This document shows, piece by piece, positions 28,636 to 44,434 of a DNA stretch of 64,000 bases. The notes beneath the pieces are model-generated. The model had not been told where the DNA came from, made no database searches, and saw only the letters and a list, made by a program, of their open reading frames with translations. Source of the DNA: a virus. Both the position numbers and the translations under genes were made by a program. The stretch is from IMG/VR virus record IMGVR_UViG_3300036820_000002, positions 1 to 64,000 of that record; one strand, given 5' to 3'. Position 1 is the stretch's first letter. Every line of letters begins with the position of its first letter.

Positions 28636-30057
28636 ATGAGGCTGGACCGCAGCATCCTGACCCCGGCCGCGCGCCGGGCGCTGAAGGCGTGTGCTGATGC
28701 AGGTGGCCGTCCGGTGCTGGCCGGAGGGTGCGTCCGCGACGCCCTCCTTCACGTTGATATCAAAGACTTCGACGTCGAAGTCTACGGTGACGTGGATCCG
28801 GACCGTCTCTGCGCGGAGCTGTCCGCCATCGGGGCCGCCGATCTCACCGGCAAGGCGTTCGGGGTAATGAAGGTGCGCCTCCTGGGTGAGGAGATCGACG
28901 TCTCCCTGCCCCGCCGCGATATCAAGACCGCAGCGGGGCACCGGGGATTCGACGTCGTCACGGGCGGCGACCTTTCCCCGGAAGACGCGTCGGCGCGGCG
29001 TGACTTCACCGTCAACGCGATGATGGCCGACCCGCTTACCGGGGAGGTTACCGACCGCCACGGCGGCCTGGCTGACCTCTACGCGGGGGTGCTGCGCCAT
29101 ACTGGTCCCGCGTTCACCGAGGACCCGCTGCGGGTGCTGCGCGGGATGCGGTTCGCGGCCCGTTACGGGTTCACTATGGCGCCGGAGACCGTCCAGCTGT
29201 GCCGCAGCATCAGCGGCGCGTTCGCCGAGCTTCCCGCCGGGCGTGTCTGGGGGGAGTTCCGGCAGCTGGGCACCCGGGGCACGGACATCACCGCCGGGCT
29301 GGCGGTGCTGGCGGACACCGGCTGGGAGCGCCACTTCCCGCAGCTGGCTGCTCTTCACGGCATTCGCCAGGACCGTCGCTGGCATCCCGAAGGGGACGCT
29401 CACGTCCATTCCGGGCTGGCGGCGGACCAGGCGGCCCGGCTCGCTGATGAGGCGGGGCTGCCCGGCGATGACCGGTTCGTCGTCGTGATGGCGGCGCTGC
29501 TGCATGACCTGGGGAAGGCGGCCCGGACCCGGCATGCCGGGCTCGCCAGCCGCCTGCTGCGCCGCCGCATCACCTCTCACGGTCATGCAGCCGCTGGGGT
29601 AGAGCCTGCGGTCGCGTTCCTGCGCGCCGCAGGCTGCCCGGACGGGCTGATCATGCGGATCACCCCGCTGGTCAAGGAGCACATGTCCTGCCAGGTCCGG
29701 CCGTCCCCGCCGGCGGTCCGGCGGCTGGCCCGCCGGCTGCAGCCCGCCACCCTGGAGGAGCTGGCCCTGATCTGCTCCGCTGACCGGAAAGGACGCGGCG
29801 ACCCGGATGCGGCCAGCGGAGCAGATGCCTGGCTGGAGATGGGGCGCGGCCTCAGCGTGCAGGAGGAGCCAGTACGCGGTATCCTCACCGGGTATCACCT
29901 GATCGCCGCCGGGATGATTCCCGGCCCCGCCTTCCGGCCGGTGCTGGCCGCTGCCGTCACGGCGCAGGATGCTGGGGAATTCGCCGACGAAGAGGGGGCG
30001 CTGCAGTGGCTTACCGGGAACTACCTCCCGGCTGCAGTTCATTCTCGCAGAGCCTGA
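28636..30057 (+). CDS. cca: tRNA nucleotidyltransferase (CCA-adding/poly(A) polymerase family) with HD domain
   Basis: GGCVRDALL...KDFDVEV, RRDFTVNAM, EDPLRVLRGMRFAAR, HPEGD...LLHDLGK. Confidence 0.93.
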   Translation: MRLDRSILTPAARRALKACADAGGRPVLAGGCVRDALLHVDIKDFDVEVYGDVDPDRLCAELSAIGAADLTGKAFGVMKVRLLGEEIDVSLPRRDIKTAAGHRGFDVVTGGDLSPEDASARRDFTVNAMMADPLTGEVTDRHGGLADLYAGVLRHTGPAFTEDPLRVLRGMRFAARYGFTMAPETVQLCRSISGAFAELPAGRVWGEFRQLGTRGTDITAGLAVLADTGWERHFPQLAALHGIRQDRRWHPEGDAHVHSGLAADQAARLADEAGLPGDDRFVVVMAALLHDLGKAARTRHAGLASRLLRRRITSHGHAAAGVEPAVAFLRAAGCPDGLIMRITPLVKEHMSCQVRPSPPAVRRLARRLQPATLEELALICSADRKGRGDPDAASGADAWLEMGRGLSVQEEPVRGILTGYHLIAAGMIPGPAFRPVLAAAVTAQDAGEFADEEGALQWLTGNYLPAAVHSRRA

Positions 30058-30117: not shown

Positions 30118-30983
30118 TGACCCGGATCGAACAGGAATGGCGGGGATTCGAGGAGCACAGGCGCAGGCTGCATGATGCTCTCCGCAGCATGTACAGCTAC
30201 CCTCCGTACACGATGGGCACCTACCCTCCGTACACGATGGGCGCGGATATTATGCCGGGAAGGAGCGTGGAGATGAAGCTGAATCCGCTTGCGAGTACCC
30301 GTCTTTGCCCGCACCATTGCGGATCCACTCTCGTGGTTGATTATCACGGCAGTGTCTGGTGCACCAGCGCTTCCTGTCCTGATCCGTATCAGGTCACCCG
30401 GTGGCTGAACGACGGAAAATTCGTCAACAGCGCATACGGGGTCATCTACCATGAGGGACGGCCTTTCTGGAGAGAGGCTGACGGCTCTATCGCGCTGATA
30501 CAGATACAGAAGGAACTTGTGCCTGATAAGAAGGAGATGGCGGTCTGCGAGGCCGCCCAGCCCGCGAACAGGGTCACCGCGAGCGTCCTCCCTGACGGGG
30601 TGAACGTGCTGTCCGTGCCCAGGATCGGGGACAAGGCTAAGGGAGACGCTCAGGAGCGGCTGGACCAGGCCTACGCGGAAGGTTTCCTTACCCAGAAAGA
30701 ATTCAAGGCGCGACAGGAGGCGGCTCAGGCCGCGAAGACGCAGACCGAGCTGGATATGCTGGCCGGGGACCTGCAGAAGGTGATTGCTCTTGCCCCTGTG
30801 CAGGGTAGGAAGAAGAACCGGGCGGTCATGCATCCGGCAGTATGCCTGCTCCTTCCTGCGGCCGTGTTTTTCGGGACGTCAGAAGCGCTTAGCTTCGAGT
30901 CTCATCTCCTGGCCTGGCTGTTCCTTGCGGCAGGGATTATTCTCCTGTTCTCCGGGATAATACTGGCGAGCCGGCGTAGATAA
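30118..30983 (+). CDS. membrane protein with DUF1707/SHOCT-like domain (start uncertain)
   Basis: RIGD...ERLDQAYAEGFLTQKEFKAR...AKTQTEL; two C-terminal TM helices. Confidence 0.6.
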
Positions 30984-30994: not shown

Positions 30995-31023
30995 TTGACC
31001 CGGGTCTGCAGTATCGGTATCTT
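30995..31023 (+). promoter_or_regulatory. SigA-type promoter
   Basis: TTGACC-17bp-TATCTT. Confidence 0.65.
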
Positions 31024-31025
31024 CA

Positions 31026-31045
31026 AGCAGAGAATGAATTGCGAC
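31026..31045 (+). repeat. solitary partial CRISPR repeat (3' 20 nt)
   Basis: AGCAGAGAATGAATTGCGAC identical to the 3' end of array repeat 5. Confidence 0.85.
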
Positions 31046-31098
31046 AAGCTATCAATAGCGACTCGGGCAGCCGTGCTGCCTGAACAGGAAGGCAGTGT

Positions 31099-32100
31099 AT
31101 GCCCCGTCTCAAGAGTCTCGCTGCCGCCGCCGCGACCTCCGTGCTCACCTTCGGTGCAGCCGCAGGGATCGCGATGGCGACCGTGAGCACCCCGATCGCC
31201 ACCTCCAACGGCGAGGCGGGCTACGGCACCCAGAGCACCACCCCCCTCACTAACGTGCAGGCGGTCGTCACCCCGGACCAGTACGGCACCACCATTACCG
31301 GCGGCGCCCTCGGGGTCCAGCTCGCCGACCAGAAGAGCAGCACCGACTGCTACGCCGCCCAGCTGGGGTTGGTGGCGAACACCGCCACTTCCACCTACTC
31401 CGTCGAGTACGGCACCGGTAACCAGACGGGGACCTGCCCGGCAGTGGGCGTGGTCAGCGGTACCGCTCTCCCCGGGCTGACCTCGGTCCCGGACAACGCG
31501 TCGGTATACCTGAGCCTCTCCTACGTCACTCACGGGAAGAAGTTCTGCTTCCCGGTTCCCTGGGGCAAGCAGGGCAAGTGGGGGCATAAGCAGTACTGCT
31601 GGAGCGGCACCGGCAGTGATGGCCTCCTGGTTAGCGCCGAGGTGCTGGACAGCACCACCCCGGTCCTGGTGACCAAGATGATCCCGGACCCGGCTGACTT
31701 CACTTTCGCCAGCTTCGGCATCTCGCTGGACAATGACAGCGCGCTGATCCCGGCCGCCGCCGGCCTCGCCGAGCCCGCCACGGAGCAGGGGCTGGGTACC
31801 TTTACCGATGACGTCAGCGTTTACACCTCCTACGCGGACCAGGAGGTCGCCGAGTTCGACTACGCCAGCGTCACCCGGCAGGGCGGCAGTCCCGAGCTGA
31901 TCGACGGCACCGGCCTTACTCCTAACGCGGCGCAGGATGTCTCCGGCGGCAAGGTCGTCGCCGACATGCACGACAGCCTGACCGATGACGCCGTCTTCCC
32001 GCTGTCCCCGGCGGTCGGCACCTACACCCCGGTTAGCATCCACGGCGCCAGCACGATCGGGAACTCCTTCCAGGTGTACACCGGGAACTCGATCGGCTAA
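31099..32100 (+). CDS. secreted protein
   Basis: Signal peptide; Thr/Ser/Gly-rich; SNGEAGY N-terminus. Confidence 0.75.
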   Translation: MPRLKSLAAAAATSVLTFGAAAGIAMATVSTPIATSNGEAGYGTQSTTPLTNVQAVVTPDQYGTTITGGALGVQLADQKSSTDCYAAQLGLVANTATSTYSVEYGTGNQTGTCPAVGVVSGTALPGLTSVPDNASVYLSLSYVTHGKKFCFPVPWGKQGKWGHKQYCWSGTGSDGLLVSAEVLDSTTPVLVTKMIPDPADFTFASFGISLDNDSALIPAAAGLAEPATEQGLGTFTDDVSVYTSYADQEVAEFDYASVTRQGGSPELIDGTGLTPNAAQDVSGGKVVADMHDSLTDDAVFPLSPAVGTYTPVSIHGASTIGNSFQVYTGNSIG

Positions 32101-32736: not shown

Positions 32737-32809
32737 TCGGACGTAGCTCAACGGGGAGAGCTCTGGTCTCCAAAACCAGCGGTTGAGGGTTCGAGTCCCT
32801 CCGTCCGGG
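32737..32809 (+). tRNA. tRNA-Trp(CCA)
   Basis: Cloverleaf; CTGGT-CT-CCA-AA-ACCAG. Confidence 0.9.
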
Positions 32810-32914
32810 CGAGGCACCACCTGCGGGTGTACGTGCGTGATCATTGACAACTCCATCTGTTGACGGGCCGGATGACCAGGGGTGAACGATGCCGCTGTAC
32901 CGTCCGGTCTCGTG

Positions 32915-32987
32915 GGGGCCTTGGCGCAGCTGGCAGCGCGTCTCTTTTGCACGGAGAAGGTCGCGGGTTCGATCCCCGCAGGCTCCA
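32915..32987 (+). tRNA. tRNA-Ala(TGC)
   Basis: Cloverleaf, G3:U70. Confidence 0.9.
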
Positions 32988-32992
32988 CGTCA

Positions 32993-33066
32993 GGGGGTTT
33001 GGCGCAGTCCGGAAGCGCGCTTCCTTCGCAAGGAAGAGGGCACGGGTCCGAATCCCGTAACCTCCA
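32993..33066 (+). tRNA. tRNA-Ala(CGC)
   Basis: Cloverleaf, G3:U70, T-loop TCC. Confidence 0.88.
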
Positions 33067-33073
33067 CCTGTAC

Positions 33074-33147
33074 GGGGCTTTAGCGCAGCCTGGTAGCGCG
33101 TCTGCGTGGCACGCAGAAGGTCGCGGGTCCGAATCCCGCAAGCTCCA
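33074..33147 (+). tRNA. tRNA-Ala(GGC)
   Basis: Cloverleaf, G3:U70, T-loop TCC. Confidence 0.88.
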
Positions 33148-33292
33148 CGAAAGAAGGGCCTGGCGCTGTCGGGCGTCAGGACTAAACGACATCCGGCGGG
33201 GCCCCAGTGATTACAACGGGCCGGGCGGCAGTCAGGGTACTACTCATGAGGTCCGCGCTCCCGCTTACTGGTGGTACTGCTAGGAATAGCAT

Positions 33293-33366
33293 CGGGTTGT
33301 GGCGCAGCTTGGCAGCGCGCGTCGTTCGGGACGACGAGGTCGGCCGTTCAAATCGGCCCAGCCCGA
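33293..33366 (+). tRNA. tRNA-Pro(CGG)
   Basis: Cloverleaf. Confidence 0.9.
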
Positions 33367-33449
33367 CTCTGAGGAGCTGCATACGGGGATGAGATAAGCC
33401 CTGGCTGTGTGTGGCGGTGAAAGTCCGTGCCAGTTCCTCAGTTTTTAAA

Positions 33450-33523
33450 CGGAGTATGGCGCAGCTTGGCAGCGCGCCCGGCTGGGGGCCGGGAGGTCGC
33501 GGTTTCGAATACCGCTACTCCGA
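33450..33523 (+). tRNA. tRNA-Pro(GGG)
   Basis: Cloverleaf. Confidence 0.88.
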
Positions 33524-33577
33524 CGAGCAGCCCGGACGCAGGCGCCGCCGGACGGCCTGGGCGGGCTGCCAGGTGTA

Positions 33578-33649
33578 CGGGGTGTAGCTCAGTGGCAGAG
33601 CACCGCGTTTGGGACGCGGGGGTCGTCCGTTCGGTCCGGACCACTCCGA
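33578..33649 (+). tRNA. tRNA-Pro(TGG)
   Basis: Cloverleaf. Confidence 0.88.
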
Positions 33650-33661
33650 CGTAAGTACTAT

Positions 33662-33733
33662 GGTCACCTAGCTGAGACGGATTAGCGGCTGCCTGAAAAG
33701 CAGCAGAGGCAGGGTCGCTACCTGCGGTGGCCA
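33662..33733 (+). tRNA. tRNA-Phe(GAA)
   Basis: Cloverleaf with atypical T-loop GTCGCTA. Confidence 0.8.
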
Positions 33734-34024
33734 CGGGGCTATAGGGAATCTCTTTGATGGTATCCTTGGCCTTTACCGGAAGACAGGACTAGAACCGTGG
33801 CCTCTGGCGGGGCCTTCGAAGAGAATTCCGGACACGATGAGGTCTTCCTTCCCTTACCGCGCTGAACACCTGTCTTCCCTCATAGTCGTGAGCCCCGGGT
33901 CCGCCTCTGCCTGCATGCCGCCCGGGGCACGGCCTGCCCCTGCCCTGACCTGGTCTCCGCGTACGGATAGCTTTATGGCATCCGTATGCAGTGGAGTATC
34001 CGTTTGAATCGGAAAGGGGCTCCT

Positions 34025-34095
34025 GCGGGTGTCGTCCAAAGGCAGGACAGCAGCCCTCCAAGCTGCTTACGCCGGTTCGACCCCGGTCACCCGCT
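34025..34095 (+). tRNA. tRNA-Gly(TCC)
   Basis: Cloverleaf; C at position 33. Confidence 0.82.
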
Positions 34096-34107
34096 CTTAT
34101 CAGCCAT

Positions 34108-34181
34108 GGGCCGCTAACTCAAGTGCGAAGAGTACCGTCCTCTTAAGTCGGAAGTTCCGGGTTCGAGTCCCGGGCGGCTCA
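34108..34181 (+). tRNA. tRNA-Lys(CTT)
   Basis: Cloverleaf. Confidence 0.88.
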
Positions 34182-34223
34182 CTGCTAGTGTTAAGGAGGG
34201 CGGCTCACTGCTAGTGTTAAGGA
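34172..34223 (+). repeat. 26-bp tandem duplication including tRNA-Lys 3' end
   Basis: GGGCGGCTCACTGCTAGTGTTAAGGA x2. Confidence 0.9.
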
Positions 34224-34274
34224 GAATGTCATGCACGCTCTCTATAAACAGGTCCCGGCCATCTGATAAACCGG

Positions 34275-34348
34275 GAGCCGCTAACTCAAATGCGAAGAGT
34301 ACCGATCTTTTAAATCGGGAGTTCAGGGTTCGAGTCCCTGGCGGCCCA
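34275..34348 (+). tRNA. tRNA-Lys(TTT)
   Basis: Cloverleaf. Confidence 0.88.
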
Positions 34349-34470
34349 CAGGAGAGAATATGCCGCAGGTCATCTGCCCGGACTGCAAGGGCGGTGAAGA
34401 CGATAAGAAGGACTGCGAGCGGTGCCATGGCACCGGTACTATCTGGGTGGACAGCGGCTCCGGCTGGTAA

Positions 34471-34546
34471 GGGCGGGTAAGTCCAATCTGGTAGAGCTGG
34501 CCTGCTCAAAACAGGTCGTATGCGGGTTCGAGCCCCGCCCCGCCTA
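34471..34546 (+). tRNA. tRNA with CAA anticodon (Leu) lacking long variable arm
   Basis: GCCTG-CT-CAA-AA-CAGGT; short variable loop. Confidence 0.7.
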
Positions 34547-34727
34547 CGGAAGAGATGAATGGGATGCAGCGGCGGCAGACCCGGGGCCTGGCTGAGGGTG
34601 ATGTCTTCACCGGCTGGAAGCATGTGCTCTGCTACGTGCAGCGAGCGGGAGTGAAGAGCGGTATCAAGCGCGGTGCCCGGCGGCGGGAGCGGCGTGAGGG
34701 CAAGGCGCAGCTGCGGGAAGAACAGAT

Positions 34728-35033
34728 ATGAAGAGAAGGCCGGTGGCGGCATTCGACGTGGACGGCACCCTCCTCCGGGACGACGACAGCCCCCGCGAGG
34801 AGATGGTCTCGTTGCTGATGGCACTGGTGCCGTACTGCAGGATCGTGGTCTGGTCCGGTTGCGGGAGCGATTATGCGGTGATGCAGGGACGGCGGCTCAG
34901 GCTCCCGGACGGCATCACCTACATGGCGAAGGCCGGCGGGTTCGCCGACCTCTGCTTTGATGACCAGGATGTTAACCTGGCGACCGTGAACATCATGGTC
35001 GCCGATGAGGAGCAATCCTCCGATCCCGCTTAG
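34728..35033 (+). CDS. small HAD-family phosphatase
   Basis: AFDVDGTL, IVVWSG, LCFDD. Confidence 0.75.
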   Translation: MKRRPVAAFDVDGTLLRDDDSPREEMVSLLMALVPYCRIVVWSGCGSDYAVMQGRRLRLPDGITYMAKAGGFADLCFDDQDVNLATVNIMVADEEQSSDPA

Positions 35034-35096
35034 TTCAGCTGGTAGAACGCCGCCCTCTGAAGGCGGAAGTGCGAGGTTCGAAACCTTGAGCGGGAG
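35024..35096 (+). tRNA. tRNA-Gln(CTG)
   Basis: Cloverleaf. Confidence 0.88.
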
Positions 35097-35100
35097 CTGT

Positions 35101-35138
35101 GCCCCTGTAGCTCAGCCGGAAGAGCGGTCACCTCGTAC
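35101..35138 (+). pseudogene. tRNA 5' half ending at anticodon loop
   Basis: GCCCCTGTAGCTCAGCCGGAAGAGCGGTCACCTCGTAC; no 3' half follows. Confidence 0.6.
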
Positions 35139-35147
35139 AGAAATCTT

Positions 35148-35221
35148 GCCGTCATAGCTCAGCTGGTCAGAGCGGCTGTCTCGTAAACAGCAGGTGGCAG
35201 GTTCGAGCCCTGCTGGCGGCT
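35148..35221 (+). tRNA. tRNA-Thr(CGT)
   Basis: Cloverleaf. Confidence 0.9.
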
Positions 35222-35260
35222 CTCCGTGGTCAGGGGCTCTGGCCGAAGAGAAGGAGAAGG

Positions 35261-35464
35261 ATGAGCGAACAGGACAGGACGGCGGCCGTTCACGCCTCCG
35301 TCGATGAGAAGGCGGCTGAGCTCGCGCTGATGGAGCACATCCGGGCGGCAGTGTACAGCCTGGAGGTTCCTATTTCCCAGGTCGTGCTCCGCTTCGAGGA
35401 GAAGCTCCGCGAGCTGCTCCCGGTGGCGCCGGGGGAGACCTTGAAGACGCCGGACAGCGAGTAG
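35261..35464 (+). CDS. hypothetical protein
   Basis: Strong RBS, GC3 bias. Confidence 0.6.
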   Translation: MSEQDRTAAVHASVDEKAAELALMEHIRAAVYSLEVPISQVVLRFEEKLRELLPVAPGETLKTPDSE

Positions 35465-35465
35465 C

Positions 35466-35978
35466 ATGGGCCGTATCGCGGTAGCAATGGTCGCGGTGGC
35501 GGTGGCCGCCGGAGCCTGCTTCGCACCGGCTGCGGAAGCCAAGCCAGCTCCGTCGAGCCATGAGGTGGCTTATGATGATATCCGGGCAGCGGGAACCAGG
35601 GAATGTTTCGCGGTCTCGGGGCTGCGGGTGATAATCGCTACCTGCAATGTCCATGACGGTCATCAGGAATGGCTTCTCAACCGCTATGGAGCACTGCTGG
35701 AGATAGCCAGCTCGGAGTACCCCGGGCTGTGCCTCGGCAAGCCCGGCTACCCGGTGACGCTCAGTTCATGTGCGGACCTGAATGCTCACGGTTACCCGCT
35801 CCGCCTTGATGAGACCGCCAGGGAGACGATGACTGTGGAACTGGCGCGTACGGGTGACCTGTTGTCTTCCTGCCTCTCCGGCGACGAGGAGGCGATCGCC
35901 CGCTGGACGGTCAGGAACACTGCCGACTGCCTCCAGGAGCTTGTGCTTCCGGAATGGAAGCCGGTGAAGGACGCGTAA
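35466..35978 (+). CDS. secreted ricin-B lectin-like protein
   Basis: Signal peptide; ECFAV...ATC...HQEW, GLCLG...LSSC. Confidence 0.65.
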   Translation: MGRIAVAMVAVAVAAGACFAPAAEAKPAPSSHEVAYDDIRAAGTRECFAVSGLRVIIATCNVHDGHQEWLLNRYGALLEIASSEYPGLCLGKPGYPVTLSSCADLNAHGYPLRLDETARETMTVELARTGDLLSSCLSGDEEAIARWTVRNTADCLQELVLPEWKPVKDA

Positions 35979-35992
35979 GGAGGGAGAAGGAG

Positions 35993-36217
35993 ATGGCCGT
36001 AGAGATTGCGCTGAAGCACAAGTACCGGATGGGCAGCACCGGCAAGAGGAATGCGTCCCGGGGCAATAACAGCGGTACGAACAAGCACCGGGGCGAGGAT
36101 AAGAACCGGCTTGCGTTCGCCCAGTCTCAGACCAGGGCAAACCAGCGGATGCTGGTTATGCTGCCGACCGGCAGGTTCCGGTGGGTGCTGGCGGCGGACT
36201 GGGGTGGCAGCCGCTAG
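35993..36217 (+). CDS. small basic hypothetical protein
   Basis: GGAG RBS. Confidence 0.45.
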   Translation: MAVEIALKHKYRMGSTGKRNASRGNNSGTNKHRGEDKNRLAFAQSQTRANQRMLVMLPTGRFRWVLAADWGGSR

Positions 36218-36251
36218 CGGGCGGCCTGGCGGGATATCAGGAAGATAACAT

Positions 36252-36336
36252 GCGCTCGTGGCGGAATGGCAGACGCGCAGCGTTGAGGTCGCTGTGCTCC
36301 GCGAGGGGCGTCCCGGTTCAAGTCCGGGCGGGCGCA
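36252..36336 (+). tRNA. tRNA-Leu(GAG)
   Basis: Cloverleaf with long variable arm. Confidence 0.9.
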
Positions 36337-36407
36337 CACCGTGTCTGGCTGGTCACGGTGAGATGATATGAGCAGGGCCCGTGGCGAGTGCCAGCTCGCT
36401 ACGGCAC

Positions 36408-36481
36408 GCCGCCTTAGCTCAGTCTGGCAGAGCAACCGCCCTGTAAGCGGTAGGTCACCCGTTCGAGGCGGGTAGGCGGCT
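36408..36481 (+). tRNA. tRNA-Thr(TGT)
   Basis: Cloverleaf; C33. Confidence 0.82.
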
Positions 36482-36794
36482 CACGAGGTAATCCCAGGGG
36501 AAGGGGACGAATGGATTTCAGTGACGCGCTGAGCACTATGCGGCAGGGCGGCAGGGTACGGCGGCGGTTGTGGTCACAGATATGGCCCGCGCACCTATGG
36601 CTGGAGATCGTGGCGAACTGGGACCTCCTGGCCAGTGACTGGGAGGCAGAGTAATCAGCCGGCGGGATTGGACGACCCCGAAGGCGCATGCCCGCAGGCC
36701 GCACCATAAAGCCATGCACAGCGGCAAGAAAGGGAGAGGTGGGGATAAGAAGCTGAAGGAAGTCAAGCGCCTGCTCGCGCAGGGAGCAGTGTAA

Positions 36795-36868
36795 TGCCCG
36801 CTGGGGTAACCGGCAAGCCCACCGGGTTTTGGTCTCGGGTGTTCCAGGTTCGAATCCTGGGCGGGCAG
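36795..36868 (+). tRNA. tRNA-Gln(TTG)
   Basis: Cloverleaf. Confidence 0.88.
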
Positions 36869-36965
36869 CGAGGAGATAGGGTTCTGCGCACGGAGATGAT
36901 TCTCCTCTGTCTAAACATGGCATAGTGCCTGGGTTACGGTACCCGGTGTCTAAAAGCCGCTGTAA

Positions 36966-37038
36966 GCCTCTCTAGCTCATCCGGCAGAGCGTGGCCATGG
37001 TAAGGTCAAGGCGAGCGGTTCGAGTCCGCTGGGAGGCT
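36966..37038 (+). tRNA. tRNA-Thr(GGT)
   Basis: Cloverleaf. Confidence 0.88.
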
Positions 37039-37154
37039 CACCGGGATACGTCTGGCACCGTGGCGTGTCCCTGCCGGTCCCACGAAGATGCTGACCTTCA
37101 CGGAGGGCCGGTAACCAGCCAGCCCTGGTCAGCGGGCGCTGGCACGGTGCACAC

Positions 37155-37226
37155 GCGGTTGTGGCGCAGTGGTAGCGCACCACCTTGCCAAGGTGGGGGT
37201 CACGGGTCCGAATCCCGTCAGCCGCT
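37155..37226 (+). tRNA. tRNA-Gly(GCC)
   Basis: Cloverleaf, T-loop TCC. Confidence 0.88.
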
Positions 37227-37287
37227 CGGAGGGACAACGCTGGGGGCTGACTTACCCAAGGAGATCGTCACTGGTGTCCCTTCTCAT

Positions 37288-37359
37288 GCGGCCATAATTC
37301 AATGGCAGAATGCCACCTTCCCATGGTGGAGACGAGGGTTCGACTTCCCTCTGGCCGCT
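37288..37359 (+). tRNA. tRNA-Gly(CCC)
   Basis: Cloverleaf. Confidence 0.85.
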
Positions 37360-37392
37360 CTGTTCCTTACGCCGAGACGCGTGAGGAACCCC

Positions 37393-37477
37393 GGGCGAGT
37401 GGTGGAATGGTAGACACGCATGCCTCAGGAGTATGTGTCTTAACGACGTGGGGGTTCGACTCCCCCCTCGCCTACCA
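37393..37477 (+). tRNA. tRNA-Leu(CAG)
   Basis: Cloverleaf with long arm, encoded CCA. Confidence 0.9.
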
Positions 37478-37557
37478 GCAGGAAGCTTTTATGATAGAAC
37501 CCGGATTCCCGGGTACTGTCTGACGGACTCCATAACCCGGGCTTCCTGCTGTTTTCC

Positions 37558-37646
37558 GGAGTGGTCGCCTAGTCCGGCCCATGGCGCTCGACTGCTAATC
37601 GAGTGGGGTCTCACCGCCCTCGGGAGTTCAAATCTCCCCCGCTCCG
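37558..37646 (+). tRNA. tRNA-Ser(GCT)
   Basis: Cloverleaf with long arm. Confidence 0.88.
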
Positions 37647-37677
37647 CCCTGTTTCAGTGAACTGAAGGAAGAGATAC

Positions 37678-38253
37678 GTGATGATACGGTCGGCTGTTCT
37701 CGCAGCAGCAGCTGCCATGACGGCAGCGATTGCCCTGGCTGTCCCTGCTGGTGCGGTGACGGGACCTCCGGCCGGCTCCCGGGGAACCGGGGTGATCTCG
37801 GTGAGGACGAGCAAGGAGAAGCTCTGCCTGACCGCCCTGGGCAGCGGGGTGGTCGTGGCCAAGCCGTGCGTATCCAGGCTCAGCGACGAAGGGGACGGGC
37901 AGGCGTGGTTGCTGTCCCGTTATGACGGCTTCCTGGCCGTGAGGTCAGTCCGCGAGTCAGGTGAGTGCCTGGGGTCGCGTGGCGGGACGGCTTCCGCTGT
38001 GCTGGTGAGCTGCACGGCGAGCAATGAGGGCGGTGACGCTCTCCGCTACGTGGAACTGGGTGACGACGCGTGTCCCGGTATCGCTGCCACCTCAGATTGC
38101 GCCGAGATCACGCTGGTTAACGGGCGTAAGCTGACCGCCTGGGTCGCGGCCCGGGGCCATCGTGACTCCTATGCCGTCGTGACCTGGGATGAGGATCCGG
38201 GAGGCATGAACGTCCGGTTTACCTGGGCGGTGCCGGGGTGGCATCATGATTAG
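37678..38253 (+). CDS. secreted ricin-B lectin-like protein
   Basis: Signal peptide; LCLTA...KPC...GQAW, ECLGS...VSC. Confidence 0.65.
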   Translation: MMIRSAVLAAAAAMTAAIALAVPAGAVTGPPAGSRGTGVISVRTSKEKLCLTALGSGVVVAKPCVSRLSDEGDGQAWLLSRYDGFLAVRSVRESGECLGSRGGTASAVLVSCTASNEGGDALRYVELGDDACPGIAATSDCAEITLVNGRKLTAWVAARGHRDSYAVVTWDEDPGGMNVRFTWAVPGWHHD

Positions 38254-38259
38254 CAGGAG

Positions 38260-38295
38260 CTGGTGATAGTCTCTGACCAGAGAATGAATTGCGAC
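38260..38295 (+). repeat. solitary full-length CRISPR repeat
   Basis: CTGGTGATAGTCTCTGACCAGAGAATGAATTGCGAC, 35/36 to consensus. Confidence 0.95.
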
Positions 38296-38408
38296 AGGAA
38301 TTGCGGCAAGGACCTGTACCGGGAGTGCTTTGACTGCTGGGACGGGTACCATGTCTACGCTACGACACCGGGGAGCAGGATCAGGTGCCCTCCGTGTGAC
38401 CAGAAGAA

Positions 38409-38533
38409 GACCGGGAAGGTGGGCTTAGAGGCAGCCATCCTCTAAGGAGTGAGAGTACCGGCGTGAGGCGTCGGCGGAGCGCCTGGCCTCACCGGGCAGC
38501 TCCGGTCTCTTCGGCGTAACAGCACACCCGGTC
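38409..38533 (+). ncRNA. 23S rRNA L11-binding (GTPase-associated centre, H43-H44) mimic
   Basis: GACCGGGAAGGTGGGCTTAGAGGCAGCCATCCTCTAAGGAGT...GCGTAACAGCACACCCGGTC aligns to 23S nt about 1050-1108 with a hairpin insertion. Confidence 0.75.
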
Positions 38534-38584
38534 AGTCCTGATGGTGTACAGTGAACAGGGAAAAGAAAGAACAGTGAGGAACGG

Positions 38585-39055
38585 ATGAGACTCGCCGAGG
38601 CGCTGCGTGAGCGCGCCGATACCCAGAAGAAGCTCGCGCAGCTGAGTCACCGCATCAGCGAGAACGCCCGGGTCCATGAGGGGGATACCCCCGACGAGGC
38701 CCCCCTGGATCTCCTGGCTGAGGCCAGGGTGAGGATGATCACGCTGGAAGAGCTGATCCGGCGCATCAACGCGACGAACGCCGCGACTCCGCTGACCCCG
38801 GAGATGACGCTCACCGCCGCGATGGCCCGCCGCGAGGCGCTGACCAACCTGCAGAAGTTCCTCACTGCCGCCGCCGATGCTGCCGCCGGCGGTACTGCTG
38901 ACCGGATGTGGGGCCGCCGCCGCGCGACTGAGCTCCGGGAGGTGGCGGCCTTGCCGGTGAAGGACCTCCGCGCCGAAGCGGACCGGGTGTCCGGGGAGCT
39001 GAGGAAGCTGTCCATGAGCATCGAGGAAATGAACTGGAAGACGGAACTGATGTAG
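38585..39055 (+). CDS. DIP1984/DUF6847-family protein
   Basis: MRLAEALRERAD...NARVHEGDTPDE...IRRINATN...IEEMNWKTEL. Confidence 0.88.
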   Translation: MRLAEALRERADTQKKLAQLSHRISENARVHEGDTPDEAPLDLLAEARVRMITLEELIRRINATNAATPLTPEMTLTAAMARREALTNLQKFLTAAADAAAGGTADRMWGRRRATELREVAALPVKDLRAEADRVSGELRKLSMSIEEMNWKTELM

Positions 39056-39059
39056 AGGG

Positions 39060-39250
39060 GAAGACGGTAGCTGCTCGTCACCCGTCCGGGGTGAGTACGC
39101 AATCCTCGCAAGATTCATGGTCTTGCATCACAGCACATGCGCGGGGCCGCATGACAATCATTACCAGTCAGCCCAGCATCTATGCAGCAGTCAGCGGCGG
39201 AAGCCGTTACCAGTTATTTTTATCACCATGTGCTAACCGGACAGGATTAC
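39060..39250 (+). ncRNA. candidate structured RNA downstream of DIP1984 gene
   Basis: Several long-range complementary blocks including a possible pseudoknot. Confidence 0.4.
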
Positions 39251-39252
39251 TG

Positions 39253-39660
39253 ATGGCAGCGAGGGCGGGCCAGGGGAATTCCCCCCAGCAGAAGCCTTTC
39301 TTGAGCATACGGCTCAAGGATTGTGAGGTGCAGACGTTCCAGTCCGGCGGACCGGGCGGCCAGCACCAGAATCATTCCAATACCGGGGTCCGGATCATCC
39401 ACCGGGCGTCCGGGGCCCGTGGGGAGTCGCGGGAGGAACGTAGCCAGCTGCTGAACAAGAAGGCGGCGTTCCGGCGGATGACAGAACATGTGATGTTCCG
39501 GGTGTGGGTGAACCGGATGATCTTCTATGCCGGGAAATCCCCGGAGGAGAGGGTGAAGGAAGACCTGGTACCGCAGAATCTGCGCACGGAAGCCCGTCGC
39601 GGGAACCGGTGGGTACCTTATGCGGCAGAAGGGAATGATCATGGCGGAACCGCAGGATGA
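39253..39660 (+). CDS. RF-1 domain peptidyl-tRNA hydrolase (ArfB/PrfH-like)
   Basis: SGGPGGQHQNHSNTGVRIIH...ERSQLLNKKAAF. Confidence 0.9.
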   Translation: MAARAGQGNSPQQKPFLSIRLKDCEVQTFQSGGPGGQHQNHSNTGVRIIHRASGARGESREERSQLLNKKAAFRRMTEHVMFRVWVNRMIFYAGKSPEERVKEDLVPQNLRTEARRGNRWVPYAAEGNDHGGTAG

Positions 39661-39798
39661 CCAGGCTGACGAGGAAATCATCGAGGAGCTCGTCAAGGGC
39701 TATTCCGGTGACGGCCTGTTCCGCGAGCAGAACTCGCCGCACCCGAAGTAATGGAGATGAACGGGCAGGAGCGCACCTCTCACGGAGGGGTGCGCCGG

Positions 39799-39870
39799 AC
39801 GCGGGTAGCTCAGCGGCAGAGCGACGCTCAGATGAAGCGGAGGCCGGTGGTCCGAGTCCACCCCCGCGTA
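39799..39870 (+). tRNA. atypical tRNA with GAT anticodon (possibly pseudo)
   Basis: Acceptor ACGCGGG/CCCGCGT, normal D arm, loop CA-GAT-GA, T-loop TCC. Confidence 0.6.
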
Positions 39871-39871
39871 C

Positions 39872-40260
39872 TGATCCGCCTCAGGGAAGAGCTGGGGCTG
39901 CCGGGATGCCCGTACGTGATCCGGTGGCGCCTTCAGGTCCCCGGGGGGTCGGTCCGGCTGCATCACTGGCTGGGCCCTGATGATGACCGTGCTCACCATG
40001 ATCATCCGTGGTGGTTCGTGACCCTGGTACTGCGCGGCGGCTACACCGACCGCAGTCCTGGGGGGACCGAGCGCTTGCGGGCGGGATCGGTGCGGTACCG
40101 CCCGGCTCTGTACCGGCATACGGTGGTTCCTGATCCCGGCGGCGCCTGGACGCTGTTGGTTACCGGTCCCCGGGTGCGGGACTGGGGATTTTGGCCGGGG
40201 AAGTTCGTGAAGGCTAACAAGTGGTTCTTCCGGTACGGTCATCACCCGTGTTTCGAGGAT
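39872..40260 (+). CDS. cupin-like hypothetical protein (ends approximate)
   Basis: VRLHHW...DDRAHHDHPWWFVTLVLRGGY...RDWGFW; the frame stays open to 40410 across tRNA genes. Confidence 0.6.
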
Positions 40261-40341
40261 TCGCCTAGCGGCTTAGGGCGCACGCCCGGAAAGCGTGTTG
40301 GGGGTGACCCCCCCTCGCGAGTTCGAATCTCGCATCCTCGG
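40254..40341 (+). tRNA. tRNA-Ser(GGA)
   Basis: Cloverleaf with long arm; C33. Confidence 0.85.
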
Positions 40342-40345
40342 CGAT

Positions 40346-40434
40346 GGAGACGTGGCACGAGTGGCTTAAGGCTCCGGTCCCGAAAACCGGCGGGTGTAAC
40401 AGCCCCGTGAGTTCGAATCTCACCGTCTCCTCCA
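40346..40434 (+). tRNA. tRNA-Ser(CGA)
   Basis: Cloverleaf with long arm; C33; encoded CCA. Confidence 0.85.
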
Positions 40435-40435
40435 A

Positions 40436-40510
40436 GGGCTGGTAACTCAGCAGGTCAGAGTACCCGTCTGATAAGCGGGAAGCCGGCAGGTTCAAATCCT
40501 CCCCAGCCCA
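40436..40510 (+). tRNA. tRNA-Ile(GAT)
   Basis: Cloverleaf. Confidence 0.85.
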
Positions 40511-40511
40511 C

Positions 40512-40586
40512 AGGCCGGTAACTCAAGTTGGTCAGAGTGCCATTCTTATAAGATGGGAGTCACGGGTTCGAACCCCGTCCGGCCTA
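40512..40586 (+). tRNA. tRNA-Ile(TAT)
   Basis: CCATT-CT-TAT-AA-GATGG. Confidence 0.88.
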
Positions 40587-40594
40587 CCGGAGCC

Positions 40595-40855
40595 ATGATG
40601 AAGCGCAAGGATGATAACAGCTGCCGGTGTGATCCGCCGCCTTTTACCGGAGGGTGCCGGTACCGGCTGTGCCGGTACGGTCACTGCGCGGAGTACGTGT
40701 GCTTGCGCTGCGATCTGTTCAGCTGGGGATACGGCCCTATGCTGTGCAAGTGTGATGTCCCTAAGCCCAGGCTCTTCCTTTACCCGGACATGGACGTGAA
40801 ACCGCACGTAGCCCTCAAGTCGTCAGCACGCCGGCGGCGGGTAAGGAAATGGTGA
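40595..40855 (+). CDS. Cys-rich hypothetical protein
   Basis: ORF between tRNAs. Confidence 0.4.
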   Translation: MMKRKDDNSCRCDPPPFTGGCRYRLCRYGHCAEYVCLRCDLFSWGYGPMLCKCDVPKPRLFLYPDMDVKPHVALKSSARRRRVRKW

Positions 40856-41127
40856 ACCGCCAGCCGCTGGCAGCATTCATCCAGGAAGGGTGCTACCGTA
40901 GCTGGCACCGCCACGGGAAACGGGCGAAGCACCGTTCTGTACGGCGTGAGCGGATGCTGGCCCGCACGGAAGCCAGGGAGGCCGTGATGAGCGAACCTGA
41001 GAGCGGATATGATATCTGGCCGTACGGTGATGACAACATGCCGGCGGTCGGTGACCCTGATGATGATTATGAATGGGTAGAGGACCTGCTCACCGCCGAG
41101 CGGGCCAGCCGTTCCGGGCCCCTGTAG
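40849..41127 (+). CDS. hypothetical protein
   Basis: Coupled ORF. Confidence 0.4.
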   Translation: MVNRQPLAAFIQEGCYRSWHRHGKRAKHRSVRRERMLARTEAREAVMSEPESGYDIWPYGDDNMPAVGDPDDDYEWVEDLLTAERASRSGPL

Positions 41128-41190
41128 CTTAACGGAGAAAGCAGGGAGCTTCTAACTCCCGGGATGCGCGTTCGAGTCGTGTCAGGGGCG
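41118..41190 (+). tRNA. tRNA-Arg(TCT)
   Basis: Cloverleaf. Confidence 0.85.
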
Positions 41191-41192
41191 CT

Positions 41193-41265
41193 GGTCCCTT
41201 GGGGTAATGCGCAGCCCGCCGCCCTCTCATGGCGGAGATTGCCGGTTCGAATCCGGCAGGGATCA
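41193..41265 (+). tRNA. tRNA-Glu(CTC)
   Basis: Cloverleaf. Confidence 0.85.
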
Positions 41266-41299
41266 CTGATGTACCAGGAAAAGAAGAGAAAGGTCCAGC

Positions 41300-41881
41300 A
41301 TGAAGAAGATGCTCGCCTGTGCCGCCGCGCTGGCAGGCGCGGCGGCAGGAACGGCAGTGATGGCCGTCCCTGTGCACGCGGTCACGGCTGCTAATGACGG
41401 GGCTGGCCGGATCACCATGACCGTCAGCGGTGTCACCCGGTGCCTGGCAGGTAATCCGGAGACCAAGGCGGTTACCCTCGGCAGCTGCTCGGACGCGCAG
41501 TCCTGGGCGATCACTGCTTCAGCCGGGGTCATGTACGTCGACTGGATCAGGAACCCGCTGCTCTGCCTCGGCGTGAAGCCAGCCAGCGGCAGTGCGCTGC
41601 TGGTCCGGTGCGATGCCCGTGATGTTACCAGCGCTTACCTGGGATATGATTTCCGGAACTCCAGGGACGCGGTCATCACATCCCCCGGTCCGAGTGCCTT
41701 CGAAGAGATCCTGCCTCCCGGGTTTGTTACCCGGGCCCGGCTGACAGTGGTCGTGCCGGAACAGGTCACGGCTACCACGGTCCTCCCGGTGCTCTGGGCT
41801 GGCCGTAACTTCATCGCTGAACCGGGATCGGCCCAGGACGTATGGACGCTGCCTAAGCTCAGCCCGACCCGCAAGGACTAG
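41300..41881 (+). CDS. secreted ricin-B lectin-like protein
   Basis: Signal peptide; RCLAG...LGSCSDAQSW, LCLGV...VRC. Confidence 0.65.
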   Translation: MKKMLACAAALAGAAAGTAVMAVPVHAVTAANDGAGRITMTVSGVTRCLAGNPETKAVTLGSCSDAQSWAITASAGVMYVDWIRNPLLCLGVKPASGSALLVRCDARDVTSAYLGYDFRNSRDAVITSPGPSAFEEILPPGFVTRARLTVVVPEQVTATTVLPVLWAGRNFIAEPGSAQDVWTLPKLSPTRKD

Positions 41882-41903
41882 CTGCCTGGCCGCCGGGGGT
41901 AAT

Positions 41904-41986
41904 GCCGTCGTTGCTCTGATGGTGAGGGGCCGCCGCCCTTTCATGGCGGATTAGCGACGGGGGTTCGATTCCCCCCGGCGGCACCA
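41904..41986 (+). tRNA. tRNA-Glu(TTC), atypical length
   Basis: CCGCC-CT-TTC-AT-GGCGG, canonical T arm, encoded CCA. Confidence 0.7.
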
Positions 41987-42472
41987 GGATAAGGAAGGAA
42001 GCCGTTGATCTGCAGGCACAGCGATGAAGGGAGAGCGGAGGCAGACGCCTTGCTCGCCGAAGTGAAGCAGCGACTCGGCGGCCGGGATGGGCCGGTCACC
42101 GACGGCACCCTGCTTAGCTGCGTGATATATAGCCTGAACCAGGACTTCGGTGCGCAGATCACCGAGATCATGTGTGATCTGTGGGCGGTAGTCTGCGCCT
42201 CTACGTACCGGGATTCGGATGACCCCTTCGAGGTGAGCATCTACTGCGATAACGTGGAAGACGGGATCGCCGCCGCCTGGAAGGCGTTCGCGGACAGGAA
42301 GGACGGAAATGCTGCTGCTGGAGCGGATGGCCCTGGAATCGGACTGGCAGGAGACCTGCCCGGTGAAGGTGGCGGAGCTGATGACGTTCATGACTCCCAT
42401 CGCACCAGTGCTGGGTAACCTGGAAGACAGCACCGGGGAGCCGCGAATCTGGCGGTATCGGGTGTGCGGCAT

Positions 42473-42546
42473 GCCGCCGTGGTGAAGTCGGAAATTCACG
42501 GTGTCCTCATAAGGCACAGAGCCCTGTTCGAGCCAGGGCGGCGGTA
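42473..42546 (+). tRNA. tRNA-Met(CAT)
   Basis: Cloverleaf. Confidence 0.8.
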
Positions 42547-42555
42547 CGAAATCGC

Positions 42556-42584
42556 TTGACGGCACGGGATCTGCCGGCGATAAT
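42556..42584 (+). promoter_or_regulatory. SigA-type promoter before tRNA-fMet
   Basis: TTGACG-17bp-GATAAT. Confidence 0.55.
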
Positions 42585-42595
42585 GGATCCTACGA

Positions 42596-42672
42596 CGCGG
42601 GGTGGAACAGTTCGGTAGTTCGCTGGGCTCATAACCCAGAAGTCGCAGGTTCAAATCCTGCCCCCGCTACCA
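42596..42672 (+). tRNA. initiator tRNA-fMet(CAT)
   Basis: CGCGGGG start with 1:72 mismatch, three G-C pairs in anticodon stem, CCA. Confidence 0.93.
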
Positions 42673-42739
42673 GAGGCACCTGGCACAGTCAGGAGTCGAC
42701 CACGGGCTGCTGCTTACCGTGGCCTCAGAAGCAGCGTAA

Positions 42740-42813
42740 TCCCCGATAGCTCAACTGGCGGTAGCGTCCGGCTGTTAACCGGAAGGTTCCTGGTTCGATC
42801 CCAGGCCGGGGAG
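42740..42813 (+). tRNA. tRNA-Asn(GTT)
   Basis: Cloverleaf. Confidence 0.9.
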
Positions 42814-42917
42814 CGCTAGTCCGGGAAACGAGGGCCAGTGGCCTGCGGCTGCCTGCGCCGCGAGCATGAAGCAGGACAGTATGAGGGGTTCCCCGGTCAG
42901 CCGCCTCATGCGCCTAT

Positions 42918-42992
42918 GGTCTTGTAGAGCAGCCCGGAGTGCTCGCCACCCTGTCACGGTGGAGGTCGCGGGTCCGAATCCCGCCAGGACCG
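42918..42992 (+). tRNA. tRNA-Asp(GTC)
   Basis: Cloverleaf, T-loop TCC. Confidence 0.9.
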
Positions 42993-43008
42993 CATAGAGT
43001 GGAACGAT

Positions 43009-43275
43009 ATGACCGCCAGCAGGAAAAAGCAGATTACCCTGTACCGGATAACCCGGATCAAGTACATCCGCAACCTGGCTCTGGGCTGGAAAGCGGACTC
43101 GGTGAGTATCGTCTACTGCTCCACGAAGGCCAGCCTTACTAATGCCCGCAAGGAACTGATCGTACTTAACGGGCATCAGTGGGCACGCGGGCAAGGCAAC
43201 CCTCGCATCCGGTATGAACTGATAGCAGAGTGGTGCCCGATGCCGGAGTTCCAGCCACTGGACCTGGGCGCGTAG
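43009..43275 (+). CDS. hypothetical protein
   Basis: ORF between tRNAs. Confidence 0.45.
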   Translation: MTASRKKQITLYRITRIKYIRNLALGWKADSVSIVYCSTKASLTNARKELIVLNGHQWARGQGNPRIRYELIAEWCPMPEFQPLDLGA

Positions 43276-43338
43276 CTCAGCGGTATGAGTGCTCGCCTGA
43301 CGCGCGAGAAGGCGGCAGTTCGATCCTGCCCGTGCCCA
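43266..43338 (+). tRNA. tRNA-Val(GAC)
   Basis: Cloverleaf. Confidence 0.85.
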
Positions 43339-43391
43339 CCGGGGTTACTGATCAGGACTGAGGTATCTCTCCTGATTTCTGGCCCTGCCAG

Positions 43392-43465
43392 GCCCCCATA
43401 GCTCAGCGGAATAGAGCGGCCGGCTACGAACCGGCAGGCCGGGAGTTCGAGTCTCCCTGGGGGTA
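43392..43465 (+). tRNA. tRNA-Arg(ACG)
   Basis: Cloverleaf. Confidence 0.9.
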
Positions 43466-43466
43466 C

Positions 43467-43685
43467 GTGATATGGACTGATATCGACCCGGCGGACGCCG
43501 TGGACATTGATTGCCGGGAGCGCCTGGATCTTGACCCGCCGCTCAACGAGAACCAGGAGGCATGCCCGTGGCCCTGGGACCCGCAGCAGCTCAAGGGTGC
43601 TCCGCTGGGCCAGTATCACTGCCCGTACTGCGGGGCGATGGTGATGGCAGGTCTTCCCCATCCGGATTACCGGAGGGATCTCTAA
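43467..43685 (+). CDS. small zinc-ribbon hypothetical protein
   Basis: CPWPWDPQQL...GQYHCPYCGAMVMAG. Confidence 0.65.
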   Translation: MIWTDIDPADAVDIDCRERLDLDPPLNENQEACPWPWDPQQLKGAPLGQYHCPYCGAMVMAGLPHPDYRRDL

Positions 43686-43702
43686 GGGAAAAAAAGAAGC
43701 AA

Positions 43703-43773
43703 GGTCGGCTAGCTCAATGGAAGAGCGAGGCGTTTACACCGCCAGGACGAGGGTCCGATTCCTTCGCTGACTA
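43703..43773 (+). tRNA. tRNA-Val(TAC)
   Basis: Cloverleaf, T-loop TCC. Confidence 0.82.
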
Positions 43774-43775
43774 CC

Positions 43776-43848
43776 GGGTCGTGATCCAAGTGGCTGAGGA
43801 AGCGGTTTGTGGAACCGTTACTGGCGGGTTCGAATCCCGTACGACCCT
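43776..43848 (+). tRNA. tRNA-His(GTG)
   Basis: GCGGT-TT-GTG-GA-ACCGT. Confidence 0.8.
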
Positions 43849-43861
43849 CCCGTCTGATCTC

Positions 43862-43943
43862 GCCAGGGTGTCCGAGCGGTCAAAAGAGGCGCTCTGTAAA
43901 AGCGTTGGCCCTGCCTTCCCAGGTTCGAATCCTGGTCCTGGCA
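43862..43943 (+). tRNA. tRNA-Tyr(GTA)
   Basis: Cloverleaf with long arm. Confidence 0.88.
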
Positions 43944-43997
43944 CGTGAAATACGAGTTCTTTCATTGACGTAATGGACGATCTGTACAGTCCTGTAT

Positions 43998-44070
43998 GCT
44001 CCCATGGTAAAGGGGATATTACGCTGGTTTCCGAAGCCAGAGATCGCCTGTTCGAATCAGGCTGGGAGCA
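43998..44070 (+). tRNA. tRNA-Arg(CCG)
   Basis: Cloverleaf. Confidence 0.85.
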
Positions 44071-44075
44071 CGCCT

Positions 44076-44148
44076 GACCCCGTGCTGAAGCGGCTAACAG
44101 AGCTGCCTGCAAAGCAGCCATTCGCGGGTTCGAGTCCCGCCGGGGTCT
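44076..44148 (+). tRNA. tRNA-Cys(GCA)
   Basis: Cloverleaf. Confidence 0.85.
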
Positions 44149-44171
44149 CGGAGAAAAGAGAGGAAGTCATC

Positions 44172-44369: not shown

Positions 44370-44434
44370 TAGCTCAGAGGACAGAGCGGGGCTCTCCTAA
44401 GGCCTGCGCGGGGGTTCGAGTCCCTCTCAGGGCA
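44363..44434 (+). tRNA. tRNA-Arg(CCT)
   Basis: Cloverleaf. Confidence 0.88.

Follow-up and report, generated by a model that had tools for sequence, protein, structure and literature searches.

crRNA-like RNAs that derive from a lone repeat are already a known kind. The delocalised crRNA of type V-K systems and the scaRNA of Francisella Cas9 carry a shortened or atypical repeat, lie apart from the array and serve a non-defence task; their targets (an attachment site, an endogenous gene) and their tracr partners are known. TnpB, Cas12f and Cas12n use scaffold or tracr RNAs. In the viral CracrVA1 and its bacterial counterpart CreR, a single pseudo-repeat shares 20 identical nt with the repeat and is followed by a spacer-like part and then a terminator; once mature, the RNA comprises a 19-nt handle and 21 nt (bioRxiv 10.1101/2024.10.29.618823). 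Viral solitary repeats are described, in the available text, as often lying just downstream of a predicted promoter (PMC10651486). The native crRNA of Cas12n has 40 nt, made of 20 repeat-derived nucleotides and a 20-nt guide; the 3′ part of the ORF overlaps with the tracrRNA, and the scaffold forms a pseudoknot with the bases immediately preceding the guide (PMC12216341).

The locus presented here, locus A, belongs to a soil phage. The window, by which we mean the whole analysed stretch of 64,000 nt, covers the initial 64 kb of one 130,268-bp contig (65% GC), which is classed as a complete virus with direct terminal repeats. We tentatively read locus A as a crRNA-like gene that stands alone and belongs to the TnpB-like type V system encoded by the phage itself, a reading that is plausible though short of probable. 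The features that bear on it are the following.

12062–13621, + strand: gene of a 519-aa TnpB-like type V effector, with its stop codon inside repeat 1
13605–14506, + strand: CRISPR array of 13 repeats of 36 nt (the last degenerate) and 12 spacers of 34–38 nt
14484–14662, + strand: array trailer with a CTGACC-17-TATGAT promoter-like site, a 10-nt anti-repeat and a strong terminator
30995–31023, + strand: sigma-70-like candidate promoter, TTGACC (30995–31000), 17 nt, TATCTT (31018–31023)
31026–31045, + strand: partial orphan repeat A, comprising the 20 nt next to the spacer in the 36-nt repeat, or handle half
31046–31062, + strand: spacer-like stretch AAGCTATCAATAGCGAC, 17 nt, predicted to be mostly unpaired (RNA AAGCUAUCAAUAGCGAC)
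31063–31083, + strand: predicted hairpin of 9 bp with a 3-nt loop, without U-tract
31086–31092, + strand: ribosome site AGGAAGG
31099–32100, + strand: 333-aa ORF with the signal-peptide-like N-terminus MPRLKSLAAAAATSVLTFGAAAGIAMA and a coding-like GC3 of 0.90

In its layout, locus A would most closely resemble CracrVA1 and CreR. Like these type V-A elements, as far as the accessible texts describe them, it has a partial repeat outside the array, a promoter-like site of its own, a short spacer-like part and a hairpin (bioRxiv 10.1101/2024.10.29.618823; bioRxiv 10.1101/2023.03.03.530964). According to the same texts, CreR and CracrVA1 serve or hijack the host's Cas12a, whereas the presumed effector of A is TnpB-like and encoded by the phage. 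Unlike the two elements as described there, A lies 16.5 kb from the cas gene, its hairpin has no U-tract and its predicted RNA runs into an mRNA. At least 9–10 PAM-proximal nucleotides of CreR and CracrVA1 are reported to match a cas or toxin promoter; none was found for A. More broadly, A appears similar to the standalone repeat elements of type I and V-A loci, to the extent that the available texts describe them. With the type V-K delocalised crRNA and scaRNA it shares a candidate guide, a shortened repeat and a position apart from the array, but no target was found for it.

The viral solitary repeats (SRUs, Racr) are similar in other respects. A is a lone repeat in an intergenic region of a mobile element, and, like those in the accessible part of their description, it sits in a phage directly behind a predicted promoter (PMC10651486). 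SRUs are described there as lying on elements without cas genes and mostly matching the host's system, whereas this phage has a matching effector and array; moreover, A keeps only the 3′ half of the repeat. Solitary viral repeats behind promoters act as decoys in several systems, as that text has it (PMC10651486), and a highly expressed handle without a useful guide could likewise titrate a related effector, whether the host's or that of a competing phage. We consider such a role very unlikely here: the phage encodes the cognate effector, so that a decoy would blunt its own system too, and a repeat of this kind was not found in IMG/VR, in 185,579 GTDB species genomes or in metagenome contigs, one chance match aside. 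That sole match, in contig L017, has 41% GC and no similarity to the phage.

What is new here is that the cognate TnpB-like effector is encoded by the phage, that orphan repeats are dispersed in both orientations, and that one of them is fused to a candidate promoter and an mRNA leader. We did not find this combination in the literature as far as its accessible text goes; phages that encode their own effector may nonetheless be listed with orphan repeats in the supplements to those papers.

The effector ORF matches the NCBIfam model guided_TnpB (NF040570) end to end (2.4e-41) and, in Pfam, Cas12f1-like_TNB. It is the only TnpB-family gene of the whole phage genome, and Cas1 is absent from the entire 130,268-bp contig. 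A metagenomic protein family shares 37–50% identity with it over the full length, and all 21 relatives that were aligned keep the RuvC residues D243, E364 and D448 unchanged. The AlphaFold model (pLDDT 79) is closest to ISDra2 TnpB (8H1J, E 1.4e-18), and Cas12f structures are found as well. A profile of the effector family alignment has its best PDB sequence match in RdCas12n (9J09, E 1.7e-26), over profile positions 300–461 only, the RuvC/TNB part; in Foldseek 9J09 ranks 47th, its model holding 257 residues only. As in Cas12n, the protein is compact and TnpB-like, has the RuvC D-E-D residues and adjoins a CRISPR array. The invariant D-E-D, the match to Cas12n, whose crRNA has a 20-nt guide, and the TnpB and Cas12f fold neighbours all argue for the reading of A as a crRNA-like gene. 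Cas12n is similar to the present system in its compact TnpB-like effector and in a crRNA of about 20 nt of repeat plus a 20-nt guide (PMC12216341), such as A would give. Its scaffold RNA is described as overlapping the ORF 3′ end; comparably, the phage ORF ends inside repeat 1, and its 3′ end has conserved nucleotide blocks in common with the related locus L086. The Cas12n type is also marked by an A-rich PAM. It differs in that only the RuvC/TNB part of the phage effector aligns to RdCas12n, and in that orphan guides are not described for Cas12n in the available text of that paper.

We read the array on the + strand because the effector gene runs into it, because repeats 1–4 are identical and the degenerate repeat is distal, and because the conserved part of the repeat then adjoins the spacers. 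This conserved part is the 3′ tail ATGAnnTGCGAC, common to the phage repeats and to the repeat of a related locus, L086. The repeat is predicted to fold into an inner 5-bp stem (positions 11–15 with 20–24) and an outer stem (4–8 with 29–33). Across 13 repeat variants, including A, the three further orphans B, C and D and the L086 repeat, 93% of the cells pair and two pairs change on both sides; the covariation score was reached by 3 of 500 shuffles, a modest support among related sequences. Every repeat contains TGATAGTCT at positions 5–13, an extended −10-like TGnTAnnnT (window 13612–13617) that would start transcripts near repeat position 20 and that is absent from the L086 repeat.

The fragment AGCAGAGAATGAATTGCGAC (31026–31045), placed as in the preliminary description, is identical to the 3′ end of array repeat 5 (13893–13928) in 20 of 20 positions and agrees with the consensus repeat over 18 nt. 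Its distance from the array end (14506), given there as about 17 kb, measures 16.5 kb. With up to three mismatches, the 17-mer AGAGAATGAATTGCGAC occurs 13 times in the window (11 times in the array, and at 31029 and 38279), against 0.03 in shuffled sequences. The repeat-like part outside the array thus covers all 20 nt of the spacer-proximal half, which, by analogy with Cas12n and Cas12a, is probably the effector-binding portion. Two other assignments are ruled out: A is no tracrRNA, since it has the same sense as the repeat, and no canonical array unit, being a single partial repeat and not a spacer between two full ones. The nearest repeat-like piece after it is a tail copy (10/12) located 17 nt downstream.

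The main rival to a crRNA-like gene is a relic: an orphan repeat of the type of B, C and D would have occupied this intergenic gap and lost its 5′ half in a single rearrangement, the promoter would serve the secreted-protein gene, and the fragment would be a passenger in the 5′ UTR without any part in RNA guidance. We hold this to be possible but rather doubtful. The boundary of A is sharp: upstream of its 20 nt, the match to the repeat drops to 4 of 16 aligned positions. An exact 20-nt copy with such a boundary does not fit even decay, a point for a crRNA-like gene; if the overall divergence (12/36) were evenly spread, 20 untouched positions in a row would have an estimated p of ~3e-4. A single deletion also yields a sharp boundary. 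Against a relic, the piece left by the break is exactly as long as a mature-type handle, and the 20 nt carry no substitution though the array repeats themselves differ by 1–3 nt.

The position of the candidate promoter bears on the same choice. TTGACC-17-TATCTT, already noted in the preliminary description and called by our promoter scan as a consensus match, ends 2 nt before A, with a predicted start at ~31029–31031. It is the sole sigma-70-like match between 28000 and 40000 on both strands, where shuffles give 1.9 on average; the whole genome has 20 such sites, 10 of them in the ~32 kb left uncovered by a crude GC3-based gene map. By an estimate from these counts, a correctly oriented site would end 2–12 nt before any one orphan with a probability of ~0.002, and a −10 hexamer 2 nt upstream of A thus argues against a mere passenger. 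The placement, by which the RNA would begin at the handle, speaks for a crRNA-like gene, as does the promoter-proximal position reported as common among viral solitary repeats; against it, the downstream gene alone could explain the promoter. A terminator-like hairpin near the end of the upstream gene (30922–30936) fits a new transcription unit beginning at A. No shared extended promoter family was found, and an identification of A's −10 hexamer with the repeat's own TAGTCT was dropped, the two being offset by one column.

Under the crRNA-like reading, transcription would start at ~31030, and the 5′ end of the RNA would already be the handle (AGAGAAUGAAUUGCGAC), with 16–17 of the 20 retained nucleotides. 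About 17–20 nt of unpaired, guide-like sequence would follow, then the 9-bp hairpin, and transcripts passing the hairpin would continue as the mRNA of the secreted-protein gene. This succession of handle, 17–20 unpaired nucleotides and hairpin appears to mirror CracrVA1 and CreR and counts in favour of a crRNA-like gene. The hairpin may be a partial terminator or a barrier to 3′ trimming; its lack of a U-tract counts against such a gene. The 519-aa effector would bind the handle, probably together with a scaffold or tracr RNA as TnpB, Cas12f and Cas12n do, and the short guide would take the complex to a site, in the host or in a competing element, that it matches in part or in full. Since the guide is so short, binding and repression seem more likely than cleavage. 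A transcript from 31030 would lack the 5′ arms of both repeat stems, so an effector that reads the repeat hairpin in cis could not load the RNA of A. The handle, promoter, unpaired stretch and hairpin suit the pre-trimmed guide of the preliminary description, though the promoter is equally explained by the downstream gene. At 20 nt, the retained piece has the length of the repeat-derived part in both the native Cas12n crRNA and CracrVA1.

If real, such a locus would mean that a phage with its own TnpB-like nuclease supplies it with guide genes scattered outside the array, one guide being made without processing, straight from a promoter, and fused to an mRNA. Regulators of the crRNA-like kind, known from host type I and V-A systems, would then also occur in a near-ancestral type V system encoded by a virus, and nature would offer a case of a minimal guide that is defined by its promoter and serves a compact effector. 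Even as a relic, the locus shows how phage-borne array repeats spread through the genome.

The spacer-like stretch 31046–31062 repeats the handle in degenerate form, with identity at 11 of 17 positions, and its part 31051–31062 matches the repeat tail in 10 of 12. With up to two mismatches, the tail 12-mer occurs 20 times genome-wide, and 8 of these copies, against 2.8 genome-wide in shuffles, lie outside the array: in the four orphans, directly after A and B, and at two other places.

The downstream gene, said in the preliminary description to encode a secreted protein, is indeed an ORF (31099–32100) with a signal-peptide-like N-terminus behind AGGAAGG. Searches of Pfam, NCBIfam and PHROGs gave no family match, and relatives of the putative secreted protein were found neither in IMG/VR nor in G001, which a neighbouring gene marks as the nearest phage (61% aa). 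A single predicted transcript carries handle, hairpin and ribosome site; its predicted fold pairs AUUGC in the handle with a GCAGU located after the ribosome site and before the AUG. The RNA of A could therefore also act in cis: a complex of effector and scaffold would bind or cut the handle at the 5′ end of the mRNA, and the level of secreted protein would follow the CRISPR state with no target in trans. Each of the four orphans is found no more than ~75 nt from the start of a gene (A 54–73 nt before one), which agrees with this; in a densely packed phage genome such positions are also simply where insertions survive. We judge this cis mechanism unlikely. The fold of 31029–31100 (−21.1 kcal/mol) has a z of only −1.73, 10 of 200 shuffles folding as well, C and D are antisense to their genes, so that one common cis mechanism does not cover all four, and we know of no Cas12- or TnpB-type effector that controls an mRNA through a repeat in its leader.

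The fragment had been taken as unique, which proved wrong: a genome-wide search with the repeat returned, besides A, three full-length orphans, so that A is one of four, two of which are antisense to local genes.

38260–38295 of the window, + strand: orphan B, 35/36 positions matching
111282–111317 of the genome (L112:6283–6318), − strand: orphan C, 34/36
128778–128812 of the genome (L113:8779–8813), − strand: orphan D, 31/36 with one deletion

B immediately follows the ribosome site AGGAG and overlaps the beginning of a Cys-rich ORF of 53 or 60 codons (38260–38445). The ORF has seven Cys (MNCDRNCG...CFDC...CPPC), and no homologue of its 53-aa form was found. After the tail of B, ATGAATTGCGAC, a 10/12 copy of it, AGGAATTGCGGC, comes next in the same frame, offset by 12 nt. 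C is antisense within codons 6–18 of a 33-residue N-terminal extension of the PTH2 gene (genome 111265–111768), an extension that starts behind a strong ribosome site. On the − strand, an 11-bp hairpin occurs 38 nt after C. D, also antisense, lies between a stop codon and the ribosome site of the next gene, a 70-aa ORF; with its T-to-C and A-to-G changes, the inner stem remains paired. Neither C nor D has a sigma-70-like site next to it, and both would read as complete anti-repeats in + strand mRNAs.

The four orphans have no common flanks and each resembles a different variant of the array repeat. Four copies in two orientations without common flanks are what a relic would predict; the different variant behind each suggests repeated sporadic insertions, and the orphans sit where insertions are tolerated, between genes or in N-terminal extensions. 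Alternatively, the phage would run a dispersed CRISPR-repeat regulon, with its own effector and crRNA pool wired to the four orphan-linked genes. The sense copies A (secreted protein) and B (Cys-rich mini-protein) would then give transcripts a handle or release single guides, and the antisense copies C (PTH2) and D (70-aa ORF) would put full-length anti-repeats into mRNAs. This wider scheme strikes us as improbable; if true, CRISPR repeats would serve as both cis and trans regulatory modules inside a virus.

A crRNA-like gene would probably involve a partner RNA, for which the preliminary description named a tracr candidate pairing with the retained half. The fragment does keep the nucleotides concerned, but the anti-repeat is only 10 nt long. 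It is a perfect one (14595–14604) and pairs with repeat positions 19–28, at a genome-wide BLAST E of 2.5. In an ungapped anti-repeat search, this trailer site was the only one outside the orphans, and no counterpart was seen in L086; RNAduplex scans for a tracr were uninformative. The trailer resembles a small RNA gene of ~135 nt (fold z −4.18). It is the only tracr-like candidate found, and its 10 nt of predicted pairing make it a weak one, which counts against the crRNA-like reading. A second promoter-like site (14527–14500, − strand) points into the array.

A scaffold could instead lie at the end of the effector gene. In both this phage and L086 repeat 1 contains the end of the effector ORF, and over their final 240 nt (window 13400–13640; L086:11396–11636) the two ORFs share nucleotide blocks although the proteins are only 46% identical. 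The blocks are GCTCGCAC, present twice, GAACCTTATCCCGG and AAGCnGAGCCCTGG; UCGCA of GCTCGCAC is complementary to UGCGA of the repeat tail. Among identical residues, the fraction of identical codons is 0.62–0.69 in the last 50 codons against ~0.45 elsewhere, with 13–16 residues per window. The ORF end in repeat 1, the shared blocks and the codon identity fit an omega-RNA-like scaffold, short of proof.

A search for targets of the spacer-like part, proposed along with the guide, gave nothing above chance. In the phage's own genome, the longest seed from position 1 of the A pseudo-spacer is 8 nt (11/12 at 58396, chance level). Neither the array spacers nor the pseudo-spacers have a target among GenBank phages. 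Exact 20-mers of the A pseudo-spacer and of spacers 1 and 2 found no target in IMG/VR, with 0 matches for A. In 401 Actinomycetota genomes there were 14 matches, all with three mismatches (one in G124), against ~26 for the reversed control pattern, and the spacer search of G001, G002 and G405 gave a best E of 0.5. A seed of at least 9–10 PAM-proximal nucleotides in a cas, toxin or defence promoter was not found in the phage genome. The missing target counts against a crRNA-like gene and in favour of a relic. No PAM can be derived, because no array spacer found a protospacer. Two matches in the window were set aside: that of spacer 12 at 31129 (25/38) is treated as chance, and that of the first 12 nt of spacer 5 at 11989–12000 (− strand) is probably chance. 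The latter is situated in the ORF before the effector gene, 62–73 nt ahead of the effector's start codon, and its flank is ACC.

Absence of the fragment from relatives that keep the effector had been named as evidence against a guide. Orphan repeats are indeed lacking in G002 and G405: in these two complete phages, whose effectors belong to the same family, all matches to the repeat fall inside the array locus (20/20 in G002; 1/1 in G405, with its decayed array). Orphan repeats are therefore not a fixed feature of the system, a point for the relic and against the crRNA-like gene; at 46–49% effector identity both phages are distant, and their lack of orphans says little about this lineage. G001 has a TnpB gene and no array. 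In locus L087 (11500–11900) the array has decayed to three irregularly spaced copies, mainly of the tail GAGGTGCGAC, and the effector gene is open over its whole aligned length. That the tail ATGAnnTGCGAC is conserved with L086 and is the sole part left in L087 speaks for A as a crRNA-like gene. The L086 array (L086:11601–13095) has ~20 repeats and irregular spacers, some of ~10 and ~15 nt.

In the probable source DNA run, the contigs have ~250x depth and are broken at the array, and locus A shows no variants. The phage also carries the following tRNA-related genes.

28636–30057 of the window: tRNA nucleotidyltransferase gene, flanking the tRNA genes
32737–44435 of the window: 42 tRNA genes in 12 kb

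A search of Rfam returned only tRNAs. The PTH2 gene that carries orphan C encodes a peptidyl-tRNA hydrolase, also on the phage genome, and the first 22 tRNA genes are bracketed by orphans A and B.
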